DNA of 64,000 nt from Gammaproteobacteria bacterium. GTDB taxonomy: Bacteria; Pseudomonadota; Gammaproteobacteria; RBG-16-57-12. This document shows positions 1 to 39,277 of this stretch, piece by piece. Below the pieces are notes generated by a model. It was not told the DNA's origin. It saw only the letters and a list, made by a program, of their open reading frames with translations, and searched no databases. The stretch spans positions 1,470 to 65,469 of the forward strand of contig JAKIVC010000011.1 of NCBI GenBank assembly GCA_021647245.1, given 5' to 3'. Each line of letters opens with the position of its first letter. Position 1 is the stretch's first letter. The position numbers were made by a program, and so were the translations under genes.

Positions 1-111
1 GGGCTTATTCAAGCGCTGTTAGGTCATGCTGAGTTGCAAACCACGATGATTTATACGCATGTGTTGAGGCAGGGTGCGCAGGGGGTAGTGAGTCCGCTGG
101 ATATGCTGTAG
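1..111 (+). CDS. 3' end of an integron-type tyrosine recombinase (IntI-like), partial at window start
   Basis: Frame 1 translates to [36 protein letters not shown]. The [22 protein letters not shown]-terminus closely matches IntI1/IntI4 rather than XerC/D. Stop TAG at 109-111. Confidence 0.6.
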
Positions 112-351
112 GGCCAGTAGTGCATTAAGCCTATCGCTACCTAAAGGTGGCTCCTACGAGGATTTGCGGCGACCACGCTGTTATTAGCCCGCTTGATCGA
201 ATTTATAAAAAAGGGGGCGAATTCAATATTGGGCTTTTGCCTTTACAGTCGGCTGAAGAAAGTTTTTATCGTCTCCCCTGCTCATTAGCATGACCAAGCG
301 CCTGCGCTCTTTACACAGTGTCATGAAATCCCTCGGTTTAGGGTGCGCCCT

Positions 352-1608
352 TTACGCTTTTATCTCTTCCACCCGCTTCATCACGTTATCCAGTGCCCCG
401 CGATTTTGTGCCACCAGCCTCTTGCCCTGCTCTCCCATGGTGTGGCTAAGTGATGGATCGTTAAACAGTTGCCGTAACTCTTTTGCCAGGTGGCGGCTGT
501 TCTCTACTTCTAGGGAGGCTTTTGCTTGTAGCAGCAGGCGGTGAATCTCTGCAAAGTTAAACATGTGGGGGCCAGTGAGCACTGGGATGCCCAATAAGGC
601 GGGCTCTAGCAGGTTATGCCCTCCTGCGGCCACTAGGCTGCCGCCGACAAAGGCGATGTCTGATGCGGCGAAAAAGAGCATCAACTCGCCCATGCTGTCA
701 CCAAGAAAGATTGTCGTTTCGCTTTGGCAGTTGTGTTGTTCACTGCGGCGAACCAAGGTAAAGCCACGTGCCTGACACAGCTTCGCAACTTCATCAAAGC
801 GCTCTGGGTGACGCGGCACCAAGATTAACAGTGTTTCTGGCAGGTGCTGTTGTAGCGTTTCAAACGCATCCAACAGTTGCTCATCTTCCCCTTTGTGGGT
901 GCTTGCGGCGATCCAGACTTTGCGATTAACACCCCATTGGCTACGCAAGGTACGGGCACGTACTTCAAGGTCGGCGGGGGGGGTGAGGTCAAATTTCAAG
1001 CTACCGGTTATATGGGTTTTTGCGGGGTCTGACCCCAGCTTAATCAAGCGCTCCGCATCAATTTTTCCTTGCGCGGCAATCGAGCTGAATTTATTGAGTG
1101 TCGAGCGTGTGAGTGCGCTAAAACGGGCATAGCCTCGGGCTGATCGTTCTGACATACGGGCATTGACCAATAGGCTGGGGATCTTCCGCTGATGGCAGTA
1201 GTGCAGCATATTGGGCCAGATTTCGGTCTCCATGATAATCAGCATCGATGGCTGGATGCGGTTGAGAAAGCGTTTGATGCAGCCGGGTGTGTCGTAGGGC
1301 ACATATCGGTGCTGTATGTTGCCTTTGATGTCGGCCACCCGCTCGGCTCCGGTCGGGGTCATGGTGGTCACCACCAGCGTGTGTTCGGGGTATTGCTTTT
1401 GTAGGCGCGTGATCAATGGTTTTGCCGCTTGCACTTCGCCCACGGAGACCGCATGCAGCCATATTACCGGTGCTTTTATACGCTCGCCAAAACCGAAGCG
1501 TTCGCTCAACCGCTCTCGATAAGCGGGCGATTTTCGCGCGCGCAGATAGAGGCGCAGCAAGATGAGAGGCAGTAGCAGTGTAAAAATAAAGGAGTAGAGA
1601 GGTCGCAT
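352..1608 (-). CDS. waaA: 3-deoxy-D-manno-octulosonic acid (Kdo) transferase
   Basis: 418 aa; N-terminal TM segment then ...RLSERFGF...WLHAVSVGE... typical of KdtA/WaaA (GT30); sits in the LPS core cluster. Confidence 0.9.
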   Translation of the reverse strand: MRPLYSFIFTLLLPLILLRLYLRARKSPAYRERLSERFGFGERIKAPVIWLHAVSVGEVQAAKPLITRLQKQYPEHTLVVTTMTPTGAERVADIKGNIQHRYVPYDTPGCIKRFLNRIQPSMLIIMETEIWPNMLHYCHQRKIPSLLVNARMSERSARGYARFSALTRSTLNKFSSIAAQGKIDAERLIKLGSDPAKTHITGSLKFDLTPPADLEVRARTLRSQWGVNRKVWIAASTHKGEDEQLLDAFETLQQHLPETLLILVPRHPERFDEVAKLCQARGFTLVRRSEQHNCQSETTIFLGDSMGELMLFFAASDIAFVGGSLVAAGGHNLLEPALLGIPVLTGPHMFNFAEIHRLLLQAKASLEVENSRHLAKELRQLFNDPSLSHTMGEQGKRLVAQNRGALDNVMKRVEEIKA

Positions 1609-1616
1609 CTGGTTTG

Positions 1617-3074
1617 TTATTTGTCTTCAGTCGGTTGCTGGCGAATCCGCTCTACAATGGCGCTGGTTGAACACCCTTCTGCAAAGTGCAGCACCTGCAC
1701 TTTACCACCGCTGGCCTGAACGCACTGATGTCCGGCGATCTGTTCGATCTGATAGTCGCCGCCCTTTATGAGTACATCGGGTAAAATTTTGCAGATGAGA
1801 CGTTGCGGGGTCTCTTCTGAAAACGGCACTACCCAATCGACACTGCGCAGGGCGGCCAGTACGGTCATCCGTTGTGCCAGTGGCACAATGGGGCGTTGCT
1901 CACCCTTGAGCCGCGCAACGGAGGCATCATCATTCACTGCCACGATCAGTCGGTCGCCCTGCTGCCTGGCTTTTTCAAGGTACTCTACATGGCCTGCATG
2001 TAGCAGATCAAAACAGCCGTTTGTCATCACGATGCGCTCACCCAGTTCTTTAGCGCGCTGCACGACAGATTGCAGCTCGGCTTCGTTCTGCACACCGGTT
2101 TTGATGCTGTTTTCAACCGGTTCACCTGCCCGAATGGCCGTACCCAGCTCTTTTACTGAGACGGTGGCGGTGCCCAGTTTGCCCACTACGATTCCTGCCG
2201 CCAGATTAGCTAATGCGGTGGCCTCGGCCAATGACTGCCCAGCAGCCAGTGCGGCAGCCAGAGTGGAGATCACGGTATCGCCTGCACCGGTTACGTCATA
2301 GACCTCTCGCGCCAGGGTAGGCAGGTGGAGTGGTGGGTGCCCTTTTTGTAGTAGCGTCATCCCTTTTTCACTGCGGGTGATGAGCAGCGCTTCCAGCTGT
2401 AACGCTTCACGCAGTGCATCGCCTTTGCTCACCACTGCGGCATCATTTTCACAGTGACCAACCACCGCTTCAAATTCGGAGAAGTTGGGTGTTAGCAGGG
2501 TTGCGCCGCTGTATTTCTGCATCGTAGCGCCTTTGGGGTCAATCAGTACCGGCTTACCGGCTGCTCGTGCCGCTTGAATCATCAGCTGAACTTGGTCCAA
2601 CGTCCCTTTGGCATAGTCTGAAAGTACTACTGCATTACAGCCACTCAAACCCTGGGTAAAGCGAGCCAGTAGCGCCGCATTGGCAAACCGGTGCAGCGGT
2701 GCTTCAAAGTCGAGCCGCAGCAGCTGTTGATGTCGACTGAGCACCCGCAATTTGGTGATGGTCTGGATTTTTTCCGAGCGTTCGAAGCGGCAAACCACCC
2801 CCGCCTGTTCAAGCTGTTGTGACATGATGCGACCCGATTCATCGTCACCCGCTAAGCCATCCAACGCGACACCCGCGCCCAGCGCAGCAATGTTGATCGC
2901 TACATTTCCTGCGCCACCGGCTCGGGCATCTAGCTCACTACGCTTGATATTCACCACCGGCACCGGTGCTTCGGGGGAGATACGGGAGGTCGCCCCTTGC
3001 CAGTAGCGGTCTAGCATGAGGTCACCCGCCACCAGAATCTGTGCTTTTTTAAAATCAGGAATAGAGAGGCTCAT
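1617..3074 (-). CDS. hldE: bifunctional D-beta-D-heptose 7-phosphate kinase / D-beta-D-heptose 1-phosphate adenylyltransferase
   Basis: 485 aa; N-terminal ribokinase-like domain plus C-terminal cytidylyltransferase domain ([18 protein letters not shown]). 4-nt overlap with downstream waaA-side neighbour and with gmhA. Confidence 0.92.
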
Positions 3075-7047: not shown

Positions 7048-8871
7048 TTAGGGCTCAGCTAAAAACCGCAACGGATCGATCAGCGTAGGTGGCCGCACCC
7101 CACTCCCTTCAATAAACAGTTTGTGCCAGATAGAAAACTGCAACAGCGCATAAATATTTTTAGTCACATCACCCTTCTGTTGCTGGCGTTTCAATAACTT
7201 CTCAACGCCACGCCGCTGCATCCACTCGGCAATGGCCGGGCTTTCGAGTAACGCCATGCCAACCTTACCTAAATAATCACTTGCCAACCAGTCGCCCACT
7301 GGCACACTAAACCCTCGTTTCTTTTGCCAGAAATGCTCACTGGGAAGGTGGCGGCTCGCCCATTTTTTCAGAAACATCTTACCCTGTTTGCCCTCTATTT
7401 TCAGGCCATCCGGCAGTGACAATCCAAACTCGATCACACGATGATCAACAAATGGCAGCCGCCCCTCCAAACCCCAGCTCATTAACATACGATCCGCTTT
7501 AACCAACAGATTATCGGGCAGTGCAGTGGTAATATCCACATATTGACGACGCTGCAAATCACTCCACTCAGTCGGTGCCTCCTGCCAGGCGGTAATAATG
7601 GGGGCACGCCACTGATCAGCTCGTTGTAGCAGTTTTTCTGAGAAGAGTTGTTTTGGCAAACCACCGCGGAAATTACCCCCGGTACGGAAGCCGCCCGAAC
7701 CGGGGTAGAGCCTGTTTTTCAACAGGCTCTCTAACTTCCCTGGACGATAGCGACCATAGCCTGCAAAGGCTTCATCTCCCCCTTCACCCGAGAAAACCAC
7801 TTTCAAATCCTGTGCGGCCTCTTCAGCCAGTAGCGAGGTGGGGAGATTGGCAAAATCACGCATCAGATCATCTGCCGCCCAGGTACTGTAAACCAGACGC
7901 TGCAACATCGACTCAGCCGTCGGACGGATAATGGTGTGTTGGCTATTGAAGTGTTTAGCAATGCTCTCTGCCGTAGAGAGTTCATCGCCGACACTGGAGT
8001 TGCAAAAGCCCAGCGAGAAGGTTCGAATGGGTTCAGCTTTGTAACGACTTAGCAGTGCTAATAGGGTTGTTGAGTCCACCCCGCCTGATAGGAACAGTCC
8101 AAACGGCACATCCGCACGCATATGCTGCGTCATCACTGTTTCCATCAGTGAATCAAATTCAGACTCTGCCTCAGCATAGCTGATGTCACGCGGCTCGACA
8201 CCCAGCGCCGACCAGTAACGCAGGCGGTCAACTACCCGCCCCTGCTCTACCGTCACACACTCACCGGGCAACAGCTGCTCAATACCCGAGAATAGCGTCT
8301 CCCGACCACTGGCGTTCTGATTTTGTAGAAACTGGATTAATGCCGAGGGATTTATTGACGGCTTTTCAGCCAGTGCCGGTAACAGAGCCTTAATCTCTGA
8401 AGCGAAGCAAACCCCTTCCGAGGTCTCTGCTATAAACAGCGGTTTCATACCAAGGCGATCACGCGCTAAAATCAAACGCTGCTTTTTACGATCAAACAGT
8501 GCAAAGGCAAACATGCCACCAATATGCTCAAGAAAAGTATCACCGTATACCGCATAGGCGTGCAGAATGGTTTCACAGTCAGAGTGGGTTTGAAATTGAC
8601 GGCCTTGATCTTCAAGCTCTTTGCGCAACTCAAGGTGATTATAGATCTCACCATTGGCCACCAAAATCAGGCCATACTGCTCATCAATAAAGGGTTGATC
8701 ACCACCCGCGAGGTCGATAATTGAGAGACGGGTGTGAGCTAGACCCAAAGAGCCGTCACAGTAAACATCTTGGTGGTCTGGGCCTCGATGAGCCAAAGAT
8801 GAAATAGCGGCCTGCAATCGTTCGCCATCAACGGGAAGAACCGCGTTATACAAGCCCATAATTCCGCACAT
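7048..8871 (-). CDS. asparagine synthetase (glutamine-hydrolysing) family amidotransferase in glycan cluster
   Basis: N-terminal MCGIMGLY (class II amidotransferase Cys nucleophile), SGGVDS PP-loop motif; start taken at the MCGI Met (track ORF begins 4 codons upstream). Confidence 0.85.
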   Translation of the reverse strand: MCGIMGLYNAVLPVDGERLQAAISSLAHRGPDHQDVYCDGSLGLAHTRLSIIDLAGGDQPFIDEQYGLILVANGEIYNHLELRKELEDQGRQFQTHSDCETILHAYAVYGDTFLEHIGGMFAFALFDRKKQRLILARDRLGMKPLFIAETSEGVCFASEIKALLPALAEKPSINPSALIQFLQNQNASGRETLFSGIEQLLPGECVTVEQGRVVDRLRYWSALGVEPRDISYAEAESEFDSLMETVMTQHMRADVPFGLFLSGGVDSTTLLALLSRYKAEPIRTFSLGFCNSSVGDELSTAESIAKHFNSQHTIIRPTAESMLQRLVYSTWAADDLMRDFANLPTSLLAEEAAQDLKVVFSGEGGDEAFAGYGRYRPGKLESLLKNRLYPGSGGFRTGGNFRGGLPKQLFSEKLLQRADQWRAPIITAWQEAPTEWSDLQRRQYVDITTALPDNLLVKADRMLMSWGLEGRLPFVDHRVIEFGLSLPDGLKIEGKQGKMFLKKWASRHLPSEHFWQKKRGFSVPVGDWLASDYLGKVGMALLESPAIAEWMQRRGVEKLLKRQQQKGDVTKNIYALLQFSIWHKLFIEGSGVRPPTLIDPLRFLAEP

Positions 8872-9349
8872 ATTGTCTAACATCCAACAGTAAGATTAAA
8901 TTTCAGATCCCAGTATACGTTAAATCAACGCCATTAACCGCCCAGCTAACATTCGATGTTTGTCAAGATAGTTGTCCAGCACTATGCTGATTCTCCTCTA
9001 ATTCCAGGCCCTTTTTTACCCTAATCTTTTGGATTCAACCACACTTCACCTGCATCAAGGTTGCTATTTAATGTATACTAAAAATCAATAATTAATTGTC
9101 CAGTCGATACTCCTCCCTGACCATGCGTGTAGCTGGATGATACTGTTAGAGGCCTTTGCAGCAGAAGGGTGTGCGAAAAAAATAGATAAAACTTAACTGA
9201 TTGAGGCGAAAAGCGCAGGGAGTAGCGAGCTACTCACAATATTTTCAACGAAAATCAGGTCTGTTTTAACCTTTTTTTATCCTTGCATCCTCTCGTGCAA
9301 AGGCCTTTGTTAGTGTTAGGTCAATAATTTCCGGATACCACCCTTTTTC

Positions 9350-10462
9350 ATGACAACACATCAAAAGCCCAAAGTGACTATTTTCATCTCTTTTTCTGGT
9401 GAAGGTGGTGTCGAACGAATGATCAGCAACCTGATTCATGAGTTTATTCGCTTGGGGCACCCTGTCGAGCTGCTGCTCATAAAAGCTCGCGGGGAGCATC
9501 TAAAGCACCTGCCGAAAGAGGTTAACATCGTTAAACTTGGCTCTAATCACAGTGCCATGACACTACTACCCTTAGTGCGTTATCTGCAAAAAGAACAACC
9601 AAAATGTATATTGGTTGCAAAGCATCGTGCCATTGTAATTGCAGTTATCGCTCGCATGCTGGCGGGTGTTAACACTCGAATTGTGGGCCGTTTAGGTACC
9701 AACCTATCTCGAGCTTTAGAAGGAAAAAGCGCGCTAAGAAAATGGCTTTGGCACGCCCCTATGCGTAAAATTTATCCGAAAGTTGATATGATTATTCCTG
9801 TCTCAAAAGGAGTATTGGACGATATAACCTCTATCACAAAACTGAGTTCTGAAAAATTACGGGTAATTTGCAATCCGGTAATCACTCCTGAAACGGATCG
9901 ATTAGCACAACAATCAATCAGCCACCCTTGGTTTTCAAAAGGGCAGCCTCCCGTGATTCTTGCTGCTGGGCGATTCACCCTCCAAAAAGACTTTATCACT
10001 CTCATTAAGGCATTTGCCGAGGTTCGTCAGCAACGTGCCTGCCGCTTAGTACTGCTCGGCCACGGCGCACTTCGAAGTGAATACGAAGCACTTGCGACAA
10101 CACTAGGTGTTGATAAAGAGCTATCCATGCCAGGGTTTTCCAATAACCCATACCCTTACATGAAACAAGCCTCACTATTTGTACTTTCCTCTGCATGGGA
10201 AGGGTCACCCAATGTGCTCTCTGAGGCACTAGCACAAGGCACACCTGTTGTTGCCACCGACTGCCCCAGTGGACCAAGTGAAGTTTTGCAAGGTGGTAAA
10301 ATTGCCCCGCTGATTCCTGTTAGTGATGTAAAAGAGATGGCCAAAGCGATTATTAAAACCCTAGACAATCCGCCGCCAGCCGAGTCACTTCGTGCAGCTG
10401 TACAAGAATATACCGTAAAGATCAGCGCACAACGCTATCTTGAGGCTCTAGGCATTCATTGA
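9350..10462 (+). CDS. glycosyltransferase family 4
   Basis: 370 aa; GT4-like fold motifs (SSAWEGSPNVLSEALAQGTPVVATDCPSGPSEVL); divergent from the asnB-like operon across a 466-nt AT-rich intergenic region. Confidence 0.8.
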   Translation: MTTHQKPKVTIFISFSGEGGVERMISNLIHEFIRLGHPVELLLIKARGEHLKHLPKEVNIVKLGSNHSAMTLLPLVRYLQKEQPKCILVAKHRAIVIAVIARMLAGVNTRIVGRLGTNLSRALEGKSALRKWLWHAPMRKIYPKVDMIIPVSKGVLDDITSITKLSSEKLRVICNPVITPETDRLAQQSISHPWFSKGQPPVILAAGRFTLQKDFITLIKAFAEVRQQRACRLVLLGHGALRSEYEALATTLGVDKELSMPGFSNNPYPYMKQASLFVLSSAWEGSPNVLSEALAQGTPVVATDCPSGPSEVLQGGKIAPLIPVSDVKEMAKAIIKTLDNPPPAESLRAAVQEYTVKISAQRYLEALGIH

Positions 10463-10511: not shown

Positions 10512-11165
10512 ATGCTGTTATCCCATCGCTATCAATTTCTTTTTGTTCATATCGCCAAAACAGGGGGCACCAGCGTCCGTGCAGCACTGGTTAGAAAAGC
10601 AATGCTTGACCCATACCGGTTACCCATGTGGTGTTGCAGCAAGTTGAGCCACCTTACGAGACATAAACTAGCCAGCAAACTTCCCCGACACTCAAAAATC
10701 ATCGCGGCAAAAGAGATGCTGCCAAAAGAGTTTTTTGATAGTTTATTTAAATTCGGATTTGTACGAAATCCTTGGGATTTACAGGTCAGTTCGTTTCACC
10801 ATATCAAACGAGAGCGCCCTCAATACCTTTTTGGCCACGATAACTTCAAAGATTTCTTGAAGTTCAAATTTGACCCAAAGCGCCCCTATCAGTACCACAT
10901 AGATACCTCTATTGAGCTACAAAGTGACTATCTAGTTGATCTGCACGGAAATATTATTGTCGATTATATTGGCCGCTACGAAAACTTTCATAATGATTTT
11001 TCTCACGTTTGCGAAAAGATAAAAATTAAATGCGCTCTACCAGAAAAGCGTATTTCAACAGACCGAACGAAGGATTTTCGTAACTACTACGATGATGAAT
11101 CTGTTGAGCTGGTCGCTAGGCATTTCAAGCGAGATATCGAGCTGTTGGACTATTGCTTTGAGTAG
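10512..11165 (+). CDS. sulfotransferase family 2 (carbohydrate sulfotransferase-like)
   Basis: 217 aa; 5'-PSB-like motif FVHIAKTGGTS and 3'-PB-like motif VRNPWDLQVSSFHH; AT-rich codon usage. Confidence 0.65.
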   Translation: MLLSHRYQFLFVHIAKTGGTSVRAALVRKAMLDPYRLPMWCCSKLSHLTRHKLASKLPRHSKIIAAKEMLPKEFFDSLFKFGFVRNPWDLQVSSFHHIKRERPQYLFGHDNFKDFLKFKFDPKRPYQYHIDTSIELQSDYLVDLHGNIIVDYIGRYENFHNDFSHVCEKIKIKCALPEKRISTDRTKDFRNYYDDESVELVARHFKRDIELLDYCFE

Positions 11166-11236: not shown

Positions 11237-12241
11237 TTGAAAAGTCTTTATATTGCCAGATCTCCCCTACAATTATTCAATTGTATCGAGGCACGCAATC
11301 GTTTCTCTGGAGATGATGAAAATATTCTTGTGGCGGCATATAAAAATGATACAGATAAAAACCTACTGCACCAACTGATTGATAAAAACGATTGGAACCA
11401 AGTTTATCTACATTCAATTAAAGCCAATGCAGACCAATACTCACTCATCATAAAACTATTTGTGCAGCACTCTAAAGTAGACACTTTATACATTGGCGAT
11501 TATACAAGCTCAATCAACTTTTATATTAACATTACAAGGCCAAAAAAAATCGTAATGGTTGATGATGGTATCGCAACCTTAAAAATAGTGGCGATGATAA
11601 ACTCCGGCTCTTTACATAAAACAAAGAAACACTTGAAAAGCAAAATGAGTGTGCCAACAATTATTGTTAGAGCAATTTGTCAGACATCTCCTAAATATCT
11701 ATATAGGTCTGACTTTTTCACTATGTATAACTTACAAGGACTTGGTCTTTCAGATAGAACCATCACGAACGACTACAGAATGTTCAAAAAAAACATTACA
11801 GGCTTGTCTGACGAAAAAACCTGTTTTTTTATTGGCACCAGCATGGAGGATTTATTGATCAGTAAAGCCTGCTACGAAAAATATTTTAAAATTCTTGCTG
11901 CTTATTTTGATAAAGAGAAATGGGTTTATGTTTTACATAGAAAAGAGTGTGCCGAGTACGTTGCACTCGTCGCAAAAAAATTTGGCATTCCTATTGTTCG
12001 CTTTAATAACATCATAGAGTCGGAGTTTTTTATTCAGAAAATTACACCCACCTCTATATCATCATTCTGCTCTTCTGCGTTGGATACAATAGAGGCTATA
12101 TATAACCCAAAAATCAAACTTCTGAAATTTGATGAAAATGACCTCATACCTACCAAAAAAGAAGCTCTTCGCAACTACTATAAATACCAAGCCAACAGAG
12201 GGATCAACGTTATCCATTTCAATGAGTACACCAAGAAGTGA
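11237..12241 (+). CDS. hypothetical protein, AT-rich island; possible glycosyl/nonulosonic-acid transferase
   Basis: 334 aa ORF with apparent TTG start; no motif I can name with certainty; context between sulfotransferase and pse operon. Confidence 0.4.
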   Translation: MKSLYIARSPLQLFNCIEARNRFSGDDENILVAAYKNDTDKNLLHQLIDKNDWNQVYLHSIKANADQYSLIIKLFVQHSKVDTLYIGDYTSSINFYINITRPKKIVMVDDGIATLKIVAMINSGSLHKTKKHLKSKMSVPTIIVRAICQTSPKYLYRSDFFTMYNLQGLGLSDRTITNDYRMFKKNITGLSDEKTCFFIGTSMEDLLISKACYEKYFKILAAYFDKEKWVYVLHRKECAEYVALVAKKFGIPIVRFNNIIESEFFIQKITPTSISSFCSSALDTIEAIYNPKIKLLKFDENDLIPTKKEALRNYYKYQANRGINVIHFNEYTKK

Positions 12242-12250
12242 CTCTATGCA

Positions 12251-13852
12251 TCAACCTAGCTTAAGCATATTGATATAGCTTATCCAATCCTGCAGATAAC
12301 TTTTCGAATGCAATCCATACATTTTCATAAATTGATCAATGGCTTTTGAACGCTCACCTTTACCACTCTCTTTATCCAGATGGTGCAACTCTATTTTTGA
12401 GGTAAACCATACCTTACTCGACTGCAACGATTGATAAACTTTAGATGCCTCTGGGCGTATTTGATAGTCACAAGGATCGGAAACTATTCGAAATTCAATA
12501 CCATTGGCGACGCATTCAGAAAGCCCTGTTGCGTTTGGATTAGTAAAAAATACCCATTCATATTCAGGCATAACCTCAACCAAGGAACCTGTTTGACCAC
12601 TACAGACAACCACAGCACCTTTAAGTTGATCAGGTATGGCTGCCTCATAATCTGAAAAGGGATTCCTAGGGTGCGCGCGCAATGTAATTTCATAGCCCAC
12701 ATCAACGAGTGATTCAAGCATCATTAAAGAGCGGTGTAAAGCTTGCTGCTGCTGCGTAACTCTAGGGCTCTGGATACTGTAAGCAAGTGTTGGCATGATA
12801 TGGGGCAAAACAACCAACACTGTTTTGCTTTTGGACTGTAAAAAGTGGCTTTTCGTCACGGAGAGTAGATCACCCAAGCGCTTTCGTGAAAGCCTAACTG
12901 AAGGTAGTGGATGGTCATTGTCTGAAAATTTATACCCCCAGGTTATATAGTAATCAAAGATTTCTCGTTCAGTTCGTTCCAACCAGGTTGGGTCGGTCTG
13001 CCCATAAAACCCACCATGCTGACTACCAATAAGGGGGATATTTCTTGCCTTCAAAATGGCAAGCAGTATCGCCTGCACTGGCTTATGTTGAAATTCGATA
13101 CCACAAATTAAAGCCTTCAGCCCACGAGCATGTTGCTTTGCATTTAGATAGCCGCTGGAAAACTGTTCGAGGAAGTAGGTAGGCATAAACAAAACTGAGC
13201 TCAGCAACAACTTATACTTCTTTTCAGGTAACTGCTTAGCGCCCATATGATCGGATAGCGAATTCAACATGGTCAAACGCATTTCAGAGTCTATTTCTAC
13301 GGGGGCATGGCTGCTTTTCTGTATTTTTACAAATTTAATATTACCCCTGAGCCGGCACTTTAAGATCATTCGCTCAATCGCAGTAAACGATAGACTGACA
13401 CCCACTTGCCTTTTATCGCACTCATCACTCAGCAACTCACTCAACGTAGCCATGTCAACGCGGGCCACTTCCTTGATCTCTGATGTGAGTATTGATGAAA
13501 TAGAGGCGTGTACATCATTGGATTTAGATAACCCATATATTAAACGGTGCACTTTTCCGTTAAATTCTGTTTCCGATAATCCATTAATATTATTAAAGGC
13601 AAACTGTTCATCAGTATGATCATTTATGACTGGCTCTAAATAACTACCATTGGCATAGATGTAAACATATAAATTGTAAAATGGTCGCAACAAAAATGAA
13701 AAATCAATGACATCCCCATGAAGCTCTGAGAGATGCTTACCCATAATCGATGACAGTAACGTCACCAAAGACTCAGGATTCAGCTCTAGAGACCCCGAAC
13801 TGCCAGTAGACTCATCTCCCAAAGTCTTTTGGAGGTTTTCAATAAAACTCAT
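12251..13852 (-). CDS. hypothetical transferase-like protein (contains R-x-HP-R-N-P sialyltransferase-like motif)
   Basis: 533 aa; ...ITLRAHPRNPFSDYE... resembles the HP motif of bacterial sialyl/nonulosonic-acid transferases; first gene of the minus-strand pse operon; AT-rich. Confidence 0.45.
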   Translation of the reverse strand: MSFIENLQKTLGDESTGSSGSLELNPESLVTLLSSIMGKHLSELHGDVIDFSFLLRPFYNLYVYIYANGSYLEPVINDHTDEQFAFNNINGLSETEFNGKVHRLIYGLSKSNDVHASISSILTSEIKEVARVDMATLSELLSDECDKRQVGVSLSFTAIERMILKCRLRGNIKFVKIQKSSHAPVEIDSEMRLTMLNSLSDHMGAKQLPEKKYKLLLSSVLFMPTYFLEQFSSGYLNAKQHARGLKALICGIEFQHKPVQAILLAILKARNIPLIGSQHGGFYGQTDPTWLERTEREIFDYYITWGYKFSDNDHPLPSVRLSRKRLGDLLSVTKSHFLQSKSKTVLVVLPHIMPTLAYSIQSPRVTQQQQALHRSLMMLESLVDVGYEITLRAHPRNPFSDYEAAIPDQLKGAVVVCSGQTGSLVEVMPEYEWVFFTNPNATGLSECVANGIEFRIVSDPCDYQIRPEASKVYQSLQSSKVWFTSKIELHHLDKESGKGERSKAIDQFMKMYGLHSKSYLQDWISYINMLKLG

Positions 13853-14110: not shown

Positions 14111-15178
14111 CTAATTGCTTCCCTTCATGTTATCAACACTCATCCAGCAAAGAGCCGTGCCACGCTTAATATCCATAGTTGCCTGCTTACCCAAAATCGC
14201 TTCAAAATATTTAGGCTTTAAACCAAATCCAGGACGTATGATACGAATATTTTCCTCGCTAAAATTCTCACCTTGCTCGATATCTTTCACTACATATATT
14301 GAACGACGAAACTTAAGGTTTTGCTCCTCAACCGGTTTCCGCTCATAACTAGCGATGCCTAATGCCTGCCATGCCATATAACTATCGGTGCAAAGCTGTT
14401 TTAGCTCTTGAGGCTCCAAGGAGAACTCAGAATCTGGCCCCTTATCTTTCCTGCTCAACGTCACGTGTTTTTCAATTACGCAGGCACCTAAAGCAACACT
14501 AGAAACAGAGACTACCGTTCCAAGAGTGTGATCTGAGAGGCCCGTTATAACATCAAATTTTTCAGCAAGATCAGGAATTGTAAGTAAATTTGACTGCTCT
14601 ACTGGAGCAGGGTAGCCACTAATACAGTGCAATAAAACCAGCTGCTGGCAACCATTATTACGAGCACACTCTACCGCCTCTTTTATCTCTTGAAAGTCGG
14701 CCATCCCCGTTGAAATAATCATCGGTTTGCCTGTTTGGGCTACCCGTTTTATTAAGGGTAAATCTATCGCTTCAAATGAGGCGATTTTATATGCTGGAGC
14801 ATCGAGTTCTTCCAATAAATCAACTGCGCTTGCATCAAAGGGGGAGCTAAAAATGGTAATACCGAGCTCTTTCGCTTTATCAAACATCGTTTTATGCCAT
14901 TCAAATGGAGTATGTGCCCAATCATAAAGCTGGTAGAGGTTGTAGCCATCCCATAAACCACCACGAATTTGAAACTCTTCACTATCACAGTCAATTGTCA
15001 TGGTATCCGCTGTATACGTCTGTATTTTTATGGCATCCGCACCCATCTTCTTGGCCATTTCGATGGTTTTTAACGCTCTTTGAATATCGCCATTATGATT
15101 TGCTGAAAGCTCAGCAATTATATAGGGAGGATGTTGCTTACCAATTTTCCGCCCATCAATAGTGATTATTTTTGACAT
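14111..15178 (-). CDS. pseI: pseudaminic acid synthase (NeuB family)
   Basis: IIAELSANHNGD..AKKMGADAIKIQTY..KIASFE..GLSDHT plus C-terminal SAF domain; start taken at the MSKIIT ATG (track start is GTG 4 codons upstream). Confidence 0.88.
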   Translation of the reverse strand: MSKIITIDGRKIGKQHPPYIIAELSANHNGDIQRALKTIEMAKKMGADAIKIQTYTADTMTIDCDSEEFQIRGGLWDGYNLYQLYDWAHTPFEWHKTMFDKAKELGITIFSSPFDASAVDLLEELDAPAYKIASFEAIDLPLIKRVAQTGKPMIISTGMADFQEIKEAVECARNNGCQQLVLLHCISGYPAPVEQSNLLTIPDLAEKFDVITGLSDHTLGTVVSVSSVALGACVIEKHVTLSRKDKGPDSEFSLEPQELKQLCTDSYMAWQALGIASYERKPVEEQNLKFRRSIYVVKDIEQGENFSEENIRIIRPGFGLKPKYFEAILGKQATMDIKRGTALCWMSVDNMKGSN

Positions 15179-15213
15179 AGTACTACCCACAAAAAACCCA
15201 TAAAAAACAAACG

Positions 15214-16734
15214 CTAAATACCATTAGAGCCGTCTGAATAAGAATAATATTTCCCATTCGACTGTTTATAACCCAATTTTTCAAACAACGCCCGTGATGA
15301 CTCATTTTCTTCATGCACTTCAGCAACAATAGTGATCGATGGGTAGCGTTGGCGTAATTTTGTTAACGCTGCTGTACCAACACCTCGACCATAATAATCG
15401 GAGGAGATTAATATCGAAACCTCATACTCACTATCTATCGACAGCTTATCCAAACGTAGAACCCCAACCGGGACCCCTTCAAGCATTATGATCAAATAGG
15501 GGTCTGGTGATGATACCCGCTTAAGAAACCAGCTCTCATGATGCTCATAAGCGGGCACTTCTGTATTTCGCGAGTATCGACGTGCACCATGCTCACTTTG
15601 CCATTTATATATCAGTTCAATATCGGACTGGGTAACAATACGTAATATGACACGCTTGTTCAAAGCAATATAATCTGCCACTCGTCCGGCGCCGCGTCCA
15701 TCGCAAATCTGGCTAGCGGCAGTGCTTAAGCCCATCAAATGATCCTCTGCATACGCCAGTGCATCTAAAATACTTTCGCTTTTAAGCTGCCTTCCTTCAC
15801 CAATAAAAATGACTGCGCCGAGCGTTGAAAGCTCTTCAGCAACTAGATGTTGATTTTCAGCCGTTTGAATTAAAATAGTCGGCAGCCCAAGGCAGCATCT
15901 CTCCCAGCTCGTGGTACCAGCTGCCCCTATGGCCAAATCAGCCTTAGCCATTAAATGAGCCATATTATTAACAGACGATAGTAGCTCTACACCAAAGTTG
16001 TATTGAGCGAGCTTTTCCTGCAAAGAGTGGTAATGTGGTGCCCCAGCACCCAATACAACGGTCACCTGCCACGCCTGATCAATGGCCATGGCTAATGCAT
16101 CCAATATTTTTTCTGAGATATTGTCTAGATCCATCCCTCCCATCGTCAGCAAAATATTCGAAACTCCATGCCGCTGACAGCGAGCCTCTAAAGCCTTTTT
16201 ACGCAGAGCGGGAAACTCTTGTCTCAAAAGGCTGAACTGACTTCCTAGCAATATCTCAGTATCACCACGCTCAAGCCAATGGAGGTAATTAACAGCATTG
16301 CGGCCAACGGTTTGATCCAGTAGCAAGTCGCACTGGTGAGGCCGGTTTGCCAAGTCATCAATTACCAGGATAGACTCGACATGCTGTGCCATGCTCGCCT
16401 CCCAACGTGCATCAATACCGTAATGGTCGACTATCAACCAGTCCAATTTAGCAGTACTCTTCACTATTCTCTGGCACAACTCAGCGTCTTTTTGCCAGGG
16501 TACGCCAAGCCAAGAATTTGTATGGTCAACGGCAACATCCTCTTGCTGCCTAGGCAGCAGTGTAATGTGGTGACCCTGTTCTTTTATTAACCCGGCAAGG
16601 TGCCCTTTAATATCAGCACTCATAAATAGAATATCGTGACCACGCCCCTTCAACTCAGCAGCAAGTGCCAGACACCGCATCACATGGCCACTGCCGATGC
16701 TAACAGAGCTATCAGCGCGTATCGCAATATTCAC
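15214..16734 (-). CDS. pseG: fused UDP-2,4-diacetamido-2,4,6-trideoxy-beta-L-altropyranose hydrolase (PseG) / GNAT N-acetyltransferase (PseH-like)
   Basis: 506 aa; N-terminus MNIAIRADSSVSIGSGHVMRCLALA is PseG-like (GT28-fold hydrolase). The C-terminal ~150 aa (acetyl-CoA binding region ...YGRGVGTAAL...) is GNAT-fold. Confidence 0.78.
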   Translation of the reverse strand: MNIAIRADSSVSIGSGHVMRCLALAAELKGRGHDILFMSADIKGHLAGLIKEQGHHITLLPRQQEDVAVDHTNSWLGVPWQKDAELCQRIVKSTAKLDWLIVDHYGIDARWEASMAQHVESILVIDDLANRPHQCDLLLDQTVGRNAVNYLHWLERGDTEILLGSQFSLLRQEFPALRKKALEARCQRHGVSNILLTMGGMDLDNISEKILDALAMAIDQAWQVTVVLGAGAPHYHSLQEKLAQYNFGVELLSSVNNMAHLMAKADLAIGAAGTTSWERCCLGLPTILIQTAENQHLVAEELSTLGAVIFIGEGRQLKSESILDALAYAEDHLMGLSTAASQICDGRGAGRVADYIALNKRVILRIVTQSDIELIYKWQSEHGARRYSRNTEVPAYEHHESWFLKRVSSPDPYLIIMLEGVPVGVLRLDKLSIDSEYEVSILISSDYYGRGVGTAALTKLRQRYPSITIVAEVHEENESSRALFEKLGYKQSNGKYYSYSDGSNGI

Positions 16735-17431
16735 TACGAGCCCTCACCGTGCTCAAGCCAAGCTCGATACATAAGCTCAGCACGCAACCAATCTTCCGGC
16801 GTATCAATGTCTTGCACCAAATGCCTTGGTAGAATAATAGGGAGTGAGTGGGTTGCAAACATGGTTCTGTCATTCAAAAAAGCCTGAGCACGTCCCCAGT
16901 AGAACTGCCCAGCATCATGATAAGCCTCTTCTAGGTCTTGAGAGCGCTGTAACATTGTTTCAGGGAAAATCGCCTCAACGCCTCCATTACTACAAATACG
17001 AATGGAGCGTTGAATGGGGAAGGCAAAACTGGTGACAGAAAATGAAAATATTTTATTGCTGTCATTTAACGCTTGGTACGACTGCTTAAGATACTCCGAC
17101 TGCACAAAGGGAGCTGTGGCATAAAGGCAGCAGGCATACTCAACTTGAGTGAGGCTGTTTTCAAACCACTGTATAGCATGTTTAACAACCGCATTAGTGC
17201 CCGTATAGTCATCAGAAATCTCTTTGGGGCGAATAAAGGGTATCTCTGCTCCATACTTTTGTGCAACCGTCGCAATCTCTTCATCATCGGTCGAGACAAC
17301 GATTTTGTCGAACAATCCTGTCTCTTGAGCCACCTCAATTGAATAGGCAATAATGGGCTTTCCACAAAAGCTTTTAATATTTTTTCGAGGAATCCGCTTA
17401 CTGCCGCCACGAGCGGGAATGACTGCAATAT

Positions 17432-17435
<4 letters not shown>
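16734..17435 (-). CDS. pseF: pseudaminic acid cytidylyltransferase (CMP-Pse synthetase)
   Basis: 233 aa; MNIAVIPARGGSKRIPRKNI acylneuraminate cytidylyltransferase motif. Confidence 0.88.
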
Positions 17436-19596
<2,161 letters not shown>

Positions 19597-34096: not shown

Positions 34097-34173
34097 TAGT
34101 CGCGTAGCTCAGTTGGTTAGAGCACCACCTTGACATGGTGGGGGTCGGTGGTTCGAATCCACTCGCGACTACC
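34097..34173 (+). tRNA. tRNA-Val (anticodon GAC)
   Basis: AGTCGCG acceptor stem pairs with CGCGACT; D-arm GCTCAGTTGGTTAGAGC; anticodon loop TTGACAT; T-arm GGTGGTTCGAATCCAC; 3' CCA encoded. Confidence 0.88.
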
Positions 34174-34187
34174 AAAATATTTCAAAA

Positions 34188-39201: not shown

Positions 39202-39277
<76 letters not shown>

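Follow-up and report, generated by a model that had tools for sequence, protein, structure and literature searches.

A probable 3′ relic of a chromosomal integron-integrase gene next to waaA in an uncultured gammaproteobacterium

[quoted passage not shown] 2008, PMC2426708). For these pseudogenes, or "pseudo-integrons", of bacterial chromosomes, decay is described as rapid and recurrent; most of those described keep most of the gene, interrupted by frameshifts or stops, and often cassettes as well (PMC2426708). Truncated delta-intI1 genes on resistance plasmids have an identifiable IS at the junction. Two of them, H1 and H14, which were among the top plasmid tblastn matches examined, keep the C-terminal 78 residues, lack an annotated integrase and adjoin an IS91-family or IS26 transposase gene.

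Here we analyzed a stretch of 64,000 nucleotides from an uncultured gammaproteobacterium (in the following called the window), whose first 111 nt on the plus strand encode, in frame 1, 36 residues followed by TAG. We conclude that, very probably, positions 7-111 are all that is left of a chromosomal integron-integrase gene, a 3′ relic of 34 codons with the stop that is no longer functional, and that the locus has no integron. The relic lies between waaA, encoding a Kdo-transferase, and, in near-identical genomes, a divergently oriented gene for an Ig-like surface protein. The features of this region are the following.

1-6, plus strand: bases GGGCTT at the junction, read as G-L in the frame of the stub; identical to the spacer in the near-identical assemblies L001 and L002 and not IntI-derived
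7-108, plus strand: integrase stub, a 34-codon 3′ remnant of an integron-integrase gene (profile, tblastn and PDB matches; dN/dS; GC3)
109-111, plus strand: original TAG stop of the integrase gene (from translation; similarity to other IntI genes at the DNA level goes no further than this codon)
112-351, no strand: non-coding spacer from the stub to the convergent 3′ end of waaA, without a recognisable RNA family, terminator or IntI-flank homology
352-1608, minus strand: waaA, convergent with the stub

The stub shares with the IntI family (TIGR02249; IntI1; VchIntIA/IntI4, PDB 2a3v) the last 34 residues, which align end to end with the C-terminus, including the LLGH histidine, the IYTH tyrosine and the tail after THVL (G-x-x-GV-x-SPLD). 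It lacks about 90% of the protein, however, and no attI or attC lies nearby in L001 and L002; it is a derivative and not a working member. Like the described intI pseudogenes, it is chromosomal, follows a major deletion and is present in one lineage but not its sister, but only 34 codons are left and there are no cassettes. The plasmid delta-intI1 remnants preserve the same part of the gene; the stub differs only in the absence of an IS at its junction and in its host, an uncultured gammaproteobacterium. With XerC and XerD it has the tyrosine-recombinase box II motif (LLGH...TT.IYTH) in common, but their region after THV is unrelated to the tail of the stub.

Family assignment of the tail

The preliminary description had read all 36 residues as the end of an integrase that resembled IntI more than XerC/D. 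The family resemblance was confirmed and is much stronger than chance would give. In the NCBIfam scan, TIGR02249 ("integron integrase") matched the tail with 47.8 bits (E 1.2e-12), residues 3-36 aligning with positions 282-315 of the 315 in the profile, and the IntI1 equivalog NF011946 followed with 30.9 bits. The best Xer-type model reached 28.8 bits with an alignment ending at residue 22-29 of 36, and the Xer equivalogs TIGR02224 and TIGR02225 scored 26.8-26.9 bits and finished at residue 24-27 of 36; the final 7-14 residues were covered by IntI models alone. Among PDB chains compared by sequence, VchIntIA (2a3v) was the best match (residues 287-319 of 320, E 7e-8), against E 2e-3 for XerD (1a0p). 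By tblastn the tail is 64.7% identical to IntI1 residues 297-330 and 91% identical to IntI tails of Thioglobus-type contigs.

The curated TIGR02249 cut-off of 265 bits was missed by the window fragment (47.8 bits) and by the whole 60-codon frame of L001 (46.2 bits). Longer relatives, however, exceed it. Five C-terminal halves of 182-196 amino acids (P0016, P0017, P0020, P0022 and P0031), found via the stub in L090, whose tail is 91% identical to that of the window, scored 273-302 bits and aligned unbroken over TIGR02249 positions 121-315, including the region of the additional domain, which is passed over by Xer models. Since the closest longer relatives clear this threshold although they are only half-length, the tail derives from a true integron integrase and not from a Xer or phage integrase. 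A XerC/XerD-like or phage-type tyrosine recombinase as its source is scarcely credible: the LLGH...Y motif is common to all tyrosine recombinases, and Pfam returned generic Phage_integrase only, below threshold, but the IntI models are 19 bits ahead and alone extend over the final 12 residues, VchIntIA leads the PDB matches by four to five orders of magnitude in E-value, and the relatives of the stub clear the IntI cut-off. We ruled out this identity on the IntI profile, PDB and relatives' scores.

The stub corresponds to IntI1 residues 297-330 or VchIntIA residues 287-319. The catalytic set R-K-H-R-H-Y is incomplete, with only the last H (in LLGH) and the Y (in IYTH), two of six, retained; the missing residues are R146, K171, H277 and R280 in IntI1 numbering. 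The IntI additional domain (about IntI1 residues 190-220) is absent, as homology begins at IntI1 residue 297. Reduced to the second histidine and the nucleophilic tyrosine, and without the DNA-binding N-terminal domain, the additional domain and most catalytic residues, the stub is unable to recombine DNA.

The homology boundary and the DNA upstream

DNA similarity to other intI genes runs from window position 7 to the stop codon, and HMM homology likewise starts at 7. The residues before [IV]Q.LLGH are R-T in 113 of 114 IntI relatives, H-T in one and G-L in none, and ahead of R-T these 114 have an invariant G-x-D-I. None of the six in-frame residues upstream of the stub in L001 matches the invariant G-x-D-I-R-T. 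The L001-type junction, from spacer into stub, reads …GGAGGAACCGG|GGGCTTATTCAAG…, whereas an open IntI frame across the boundary would read …GAYATHCGNACN|ATTCAAGCG…. The boundary at 6|7 is sharp, and the window carries the junction itself. The IntI-derived part is thus 34 codons (7-108) and not 36, the first two codons, G-L, lying outside it. Since bases 1-6 encode G-L and are identical to the L001/L002 spacer, the body of the gene appears to be gone even from the window alone, and these bases argue against an intact intI in the window's own strain.

The DNA further upstream was read from L001 and L002, standing in for the window's own genome, which we infer continues in the same way. An exact search for the WaaA protein (352-1608, minus strand) led to them and to L003, and L091 came from the same kind of look-up with HldE and WaaA as queries. 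Compared with window positions 1-3000, L001 (NCBI MAG GCA_021648105.1, contig JAKITL010000020.1, 46 kb) is 99.93% identical, L002 (Logan, SRR32233990) 100% and L003 (Logan, SRR32233993) 99.87%. L001 and L002 extend past window position 1, where 743 bp are identical between both. Their integrase frame spans 60 codons from stop to stop; its upstream stop is a TGA (L001 11683-11681) that precedes the window start by 24 codons, and the ORF from the first start codon (TTG) has 41 codons. An intact intI at this site would require about 296 further codons (~890 bp). The spacer upstream of position 1 is instead 282 bp long and AT-rich (~40% G+C); beyond it lie the divergent Ig-like/Big_1 (DUF5011) surface-protein gene, then priA, argS and a SPOR-domain gene.

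We scanned every stop-to-stop piece on the stub strand of the 282-bp spacer against NCBIfam and detected IntI in residues 27-60 of the tail frame only. In gapped tblastn, 44 residues further upstream added just 0.8 bit (49.7 versus 48.9), and full-length IntI1 searched by tblastn against L001 and L002 matched the tail alone and nothing else over 10 kb of upstream sequence. A degraded, frameshifted continuation ("PLRSRYY" resembling HxLRHSFAT and, in another frame, "YDPDITI" resembling YDIRT) was considered and attributed to chance, as the HMM search in all frames returned nothing and tblastn gained only that 0.8 bit. No IS, inverted repeat or transposase was found at the stub junction in L001 and L002.

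A genuine IntI with an attI site and a cassette array upstream, as proposed in the preliminary description, was not borne out: the frame is stopped 24 codons upstream, and the search for the intI body, additional domain, attI and a family of attC-type repeats in L001 and L002 found none of them, with no IntI within 10 kb. The attI site and Pc promoter belong next to the intI 5′ end, which is absent here, the divergent Ig-like gene beginning 282 bp upstream of position 1. A repeat search of the 10 kb upstream in L001 found no attC-like repeat family, its only repeats being 36-nt units and a 243-bp duplication within the Ig-like gene and one MITE-like element, and that stretch is occupied by long genes with housekeeping roles. 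The absence of attC rests on this gene content and repeat search and not on the attC pattern scan (RYYYAAC...GTTRRRY plus folding), whose 0 candidates upstream carry no weight because it missed its sole positive control (class 1, L087). Very probably there is no integron at this locus, so that the waa/pse glycan locus would not lie beside an active gene-capture platform.

The scan that failed its control also marked, on both strands, a 100-nt palindrome with RYYYAAC/GTTRRRY-like ends at window 61413-61512. This isolated site falls within a long ORF (61230-62456, minus strand) and is probably a chance occurrence. Around the stub, a promoter and terminator scan gave no signal above shuffled controls. 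Rfam searches of the window and L001 returned nothing relevant near the stub and two tRNAs only:

34098-34174, plus strand: tRNA-Val(GAC)
39202-39277, minus strand: tRNA-Thr(TGT)

Synteny, assembly breaks and the glycan locus

A sister lineage (L093-L095), 80.6% identical over hldE-waaA, lacks the stub. Its similarity to the window does not extend past waaA, beyond which it has genes for a hypothetical protein of 193 aa, an EAL response regulator and a PAS histidine kinase. Because sister-lineage homology ends with waaA and different genes lie beyond, the stub is placed by this comparison at a synteny breakpoint downstream of waaA.

Compared with five relatives, the 34 codons have an intact frame, a saturated pS of 0.61-0.79 and a pN of 0.09-0.13, giving a dN/dS of 0.06-0.11 in the four computable comparisons; the stub DNA is 71-77% identical to its closest relatives. 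Low dN/dS, saturated synonymous sites and an intact frame would mean that the sequence diverged almost entirely as part of a working gene and was truncated comparatively recently. This suggests a recent truncation of a long-resident gene, with 34 codons being too few for firm claims on age or selection. The GC3 of the stub (0.59) falls within the range of waaA, hldE and lpxL (0.52-0.61), compared with 0.29-0.50 for the relatives' tails; such a host-like value may weakly favor long residence over recent import.

The assembled sequence of L003 breaks off exactly at window position 7, only 6 bp from where the window itself starts. These two ends resemble a branch in an assembly graph, which may reflect either a variant in a co-existing strain or another copy of the 105 bp. 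The Ig-like/Big_1/DUF5011 gene itself (L001 11891-15202) encodes 1,103 amino acids (1,099 in P0135), including ~20 tandem 12-residue Asp/Asn-rich repeats of calcium-binding type (L001 14099-14877). The probable MAG of the window (WaaA MCF6218015.1) has, before PriA, an Ig-like protein of 947 aa (MCF6217745.1, P0136), which differs from P0135 in its N-terminus and is 97% identical to it after residue ~192. The P0136-type N-terminus also occurs in the MAG of L001 on another contig (L096 10001-10451), downstream of mutL-argG-DUF1841-nth; tblastn with IntI1 and four lineage-specific IntI fragments found no IntI sequence near this nth-linked variant. The waaA-linked and nth-linked variants may represent either paralogues or alleles of different strains. 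Hence the DNA upstream of the stub may be strain-variable, its arrangement differing between strains, or two paralogous genes may have confused the assemblers.

The suggestion that the glycan locus neighbors a recombination hotspot can be kept in a weak form that is independent of integrons, resting on the synteny breakpoint and the assembly breaks; its integron basis has to be dropped. With L003 stopping at the boundary, the window beginning only 6 bp ahead of it and two N-terminal variants of the Ig-like gene occurring in two contexts, the boundary at 6|7 could also be a live polymorphism, some co-existing strains keeping an intact intI or integron here or sharing its last 105 bp elsewhere. 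We consider this unlikely; if true, it would provide a natural before/after pair for integron loss beside an LPS core locus.

Between the Ig-like gene and priA lies a MITE-like element of 156 bp (L001 15286-15441), whose terminal inverted repeats measure 23 nt (CCTAATCCCCAGATAGAAACCCG) and are 96% complementary. A copy with 85% identity is present at an unrelated intergenic spot of the sister lineage (L093 14989-15146), and the terminal repeat has no copy in the window.

The window also carries a Pfam-confirmed gene set of the pseudaminic-acid type (14111-19587, minus strand) with neighbors, as follows.

10512-11165: sulfotransferase near this set (Pfam)
11237-12241 and 12251-13852: proteins near this set without a Pfam match in the scan
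14111-15190, minus strand: NeuB-family synthase (Pfam)
15214-16734, minus strand: fused Glyco_tran_28_C and GNAT protein (Pfam)
16734-17435, minus strand: CMP-sugar cytidylyltransferase (Pfam)
17432-18589, minus strand: DegT aminotransferase (Pfam)
18586-19587, minus strand: Polysacc_synt_2 dehydratase (Pfam)

The independent Logan contigs L002 and L003 both start at exactly the same window position, ~9014, between an asnB-like gene (7048-8883) and a GT4 gene (9350-10462), and this common start suggests strain-level variation in the outer glycan locus. In the sister lineage (L093), the glycosyltransferase and aminotransferase genes that follow the asnB-like gene form another set.

In a WaaA search of genome contigs, the best identity was 53% among the matches listed (at least 80 loci), and the species of the window was not among these, which provided no informative synteny. 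Five distant gammaproteobacterial loci (L025 39-230, L031 4508-4705, L045 3334-4023, L058 3352-4044 and L077 5435-5632) have a tyrosine-recombinase gene ~6 kb upstream of waaA. Their products are 54-62% identical to the C-terminal region of IntI1, the match ending before the IntI tail. We considered them as kin of the stub and judged them unrelated, given that they have no IntI tail and lie on the opposite side of waaA.

Related stubs and competing explanations

A protein search with the 60-residue frame yielded six proteins only, all short (43-79 aa), with tails 65-91% identical; one is annotated as an integron integrase, from an uncultured Candidatus Thioglobus. No full-length protein with this tail was present among 5.8 billion clusters, an exact 41-mer from the stub was absent from JGI metagenome contigs, and megablast of window 1-2500 against plasmids gave no match. 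A second search, with a 112-residue relative as the query, returned thousands of IntI fragments, among which those of Thiomicrorhabdus genomes measure 117-194 aa. We located stubs at several other loci:

L085 8001-8135: stub of 33 codons upstream of an ATP_bind_3-family gene, the stub's stop overlapping the start of the downstream gene
L089 31-357: longer, internally deleted stub at the same locus as L085
L086 1954-2079: stub of 41 codons upstream of dapF-DUF484-xerC
L088 2645-2728: stub of 27 codons at the same locus as L086
L090: stub of 110 codons

These Thioglobus/Thiomicrorhabdus-type stubs (L085, L086, L088-L090; P0018, P0024, P0031) belong to the same IntI clade as that of the window, with tails 85-91% identical, and show the same type of 5′ truncation among housekeeping genes. 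They differ from it in their loci (upstream of an ATP_bind_3-family gene, dapF-xerC, dsrC and murD), lower G+C and other breakpoints, and are independent events, not orthologous relics of the window stub. The homology of four independent stubs ends within a zone of 15 codons. The pairs at the same locus, L085/L089 and L086/L088, differ in length, a pattern read here from sequence comparison as stepwise 5′-to-3′ erosion. The idea that the breakpoints mark a hotspot or a selected unit was dropped, because of these differing pairs and the many longer stubs.

For the window we propose that a deletion or rearrangement took the first ~296 codons of intI and with them any cassettes, Pc promoter or attI site that lay past the 5′ end of the gene. 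The truncation would be evolutionarily recent, and the gene, long resident in the lineage, would have decayed where it stood instead of being brought in as a fragment. The breakpoint may fit either an integron formerly present here or a fragment brought by rearrangement. That the stub arrived as a fragment with flanking DNA, through rearrangement or illegitimate recombination, and is a dead relic of an integron that never stood beside waaA, is possible, though we regard it as doubtful. It would agree with the sister lineage, which at 80.6% identity over hldE-waaA has no trace of intI and loses homology at the end of waaA, and with the closest tails (91% amino-acid identity) being in a different group, on Thioglobus- and Thiomicrorhabdus-type contigs. 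A recent import, however, fits poorly with a GC3 of 0.59, equal to that of host genes and not the 0.29-0.50 of the relatives, and with relatives that are only 71-77% identical in DNA and saturated at synonymous sites; with 34 codons neither point is decisive.

A complete, functional intI with attI and cassettes upstream in the window's own genome is very unlikely. It could draw on the IntI-type tail, the intact frame and the strong signature of purifying selection, and on L003, whose end at the homology boundary is compatible with a co-existing variant, the upstream DNA being known from L001 and L002 alone. Yet positions 1-6 encode G-L in place of the R-T of 113 of 114 relatives and equal the non-IntI spacer of L001 and L002, the truncated form is present in L002, which is 100% identical over 3 kb, and neither the protein clusters nor the JGI metagenomes returned the full-length protein or the 41-mer. 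Splitting of intI by an insertion, for example of the Ig-like gene segment, with the 5′ part still further upstream, is likewise highly improbable. The stub does lie at a synteny breakpoint after which the sister lineage has entirely different genes, and the Ig-like gene is strain-variable with the 156-bp MITE-like element just past it; but tblastn with IntI1 and four lineage-specific fragments found no other piece in the 10 kb upstream in L001 or in L096, and the flanking priA, argS and SPOR-domain genes are housekeeping genes, not island cargo. Selection might also have preserved the 3′ end of intI, as a small ORF (41 codons, starting at TTG) or a regulatory element; this would explain the recurrent stubs of 27-41 codons at several unrelated loci, and we give it hardly any probability. 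The shared 15-codon zone of the four independent stubs and the overlap of the L085 stop with the next gene's start speak for it. Against it, stub lengths at the same locus differ (L089 longer than L085, L086 longer than L088), as fits stepwise erosion, longer stubs of 110-194 aa are also common and shorter ones would go undetected, and the window stub faces the 3′ end of waaA, so that it supplies no promoter or RBS, with no signal above shuffled controls.

A non-functional relic at a locus without an integron therefore remains our preferred reading. It illustrates that a C-terminal IntI match at the edge of a window or contig does not by itself amount to an integron. Decayed intI genes are already well documented, and the window stub is an ordinary gene relic of this kind. 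It is a record of an integron integrase formerly carried by the lineage or a donor, and a further piece of evidence for the frequent decay of intI genes and their erosion from the 5′ side.
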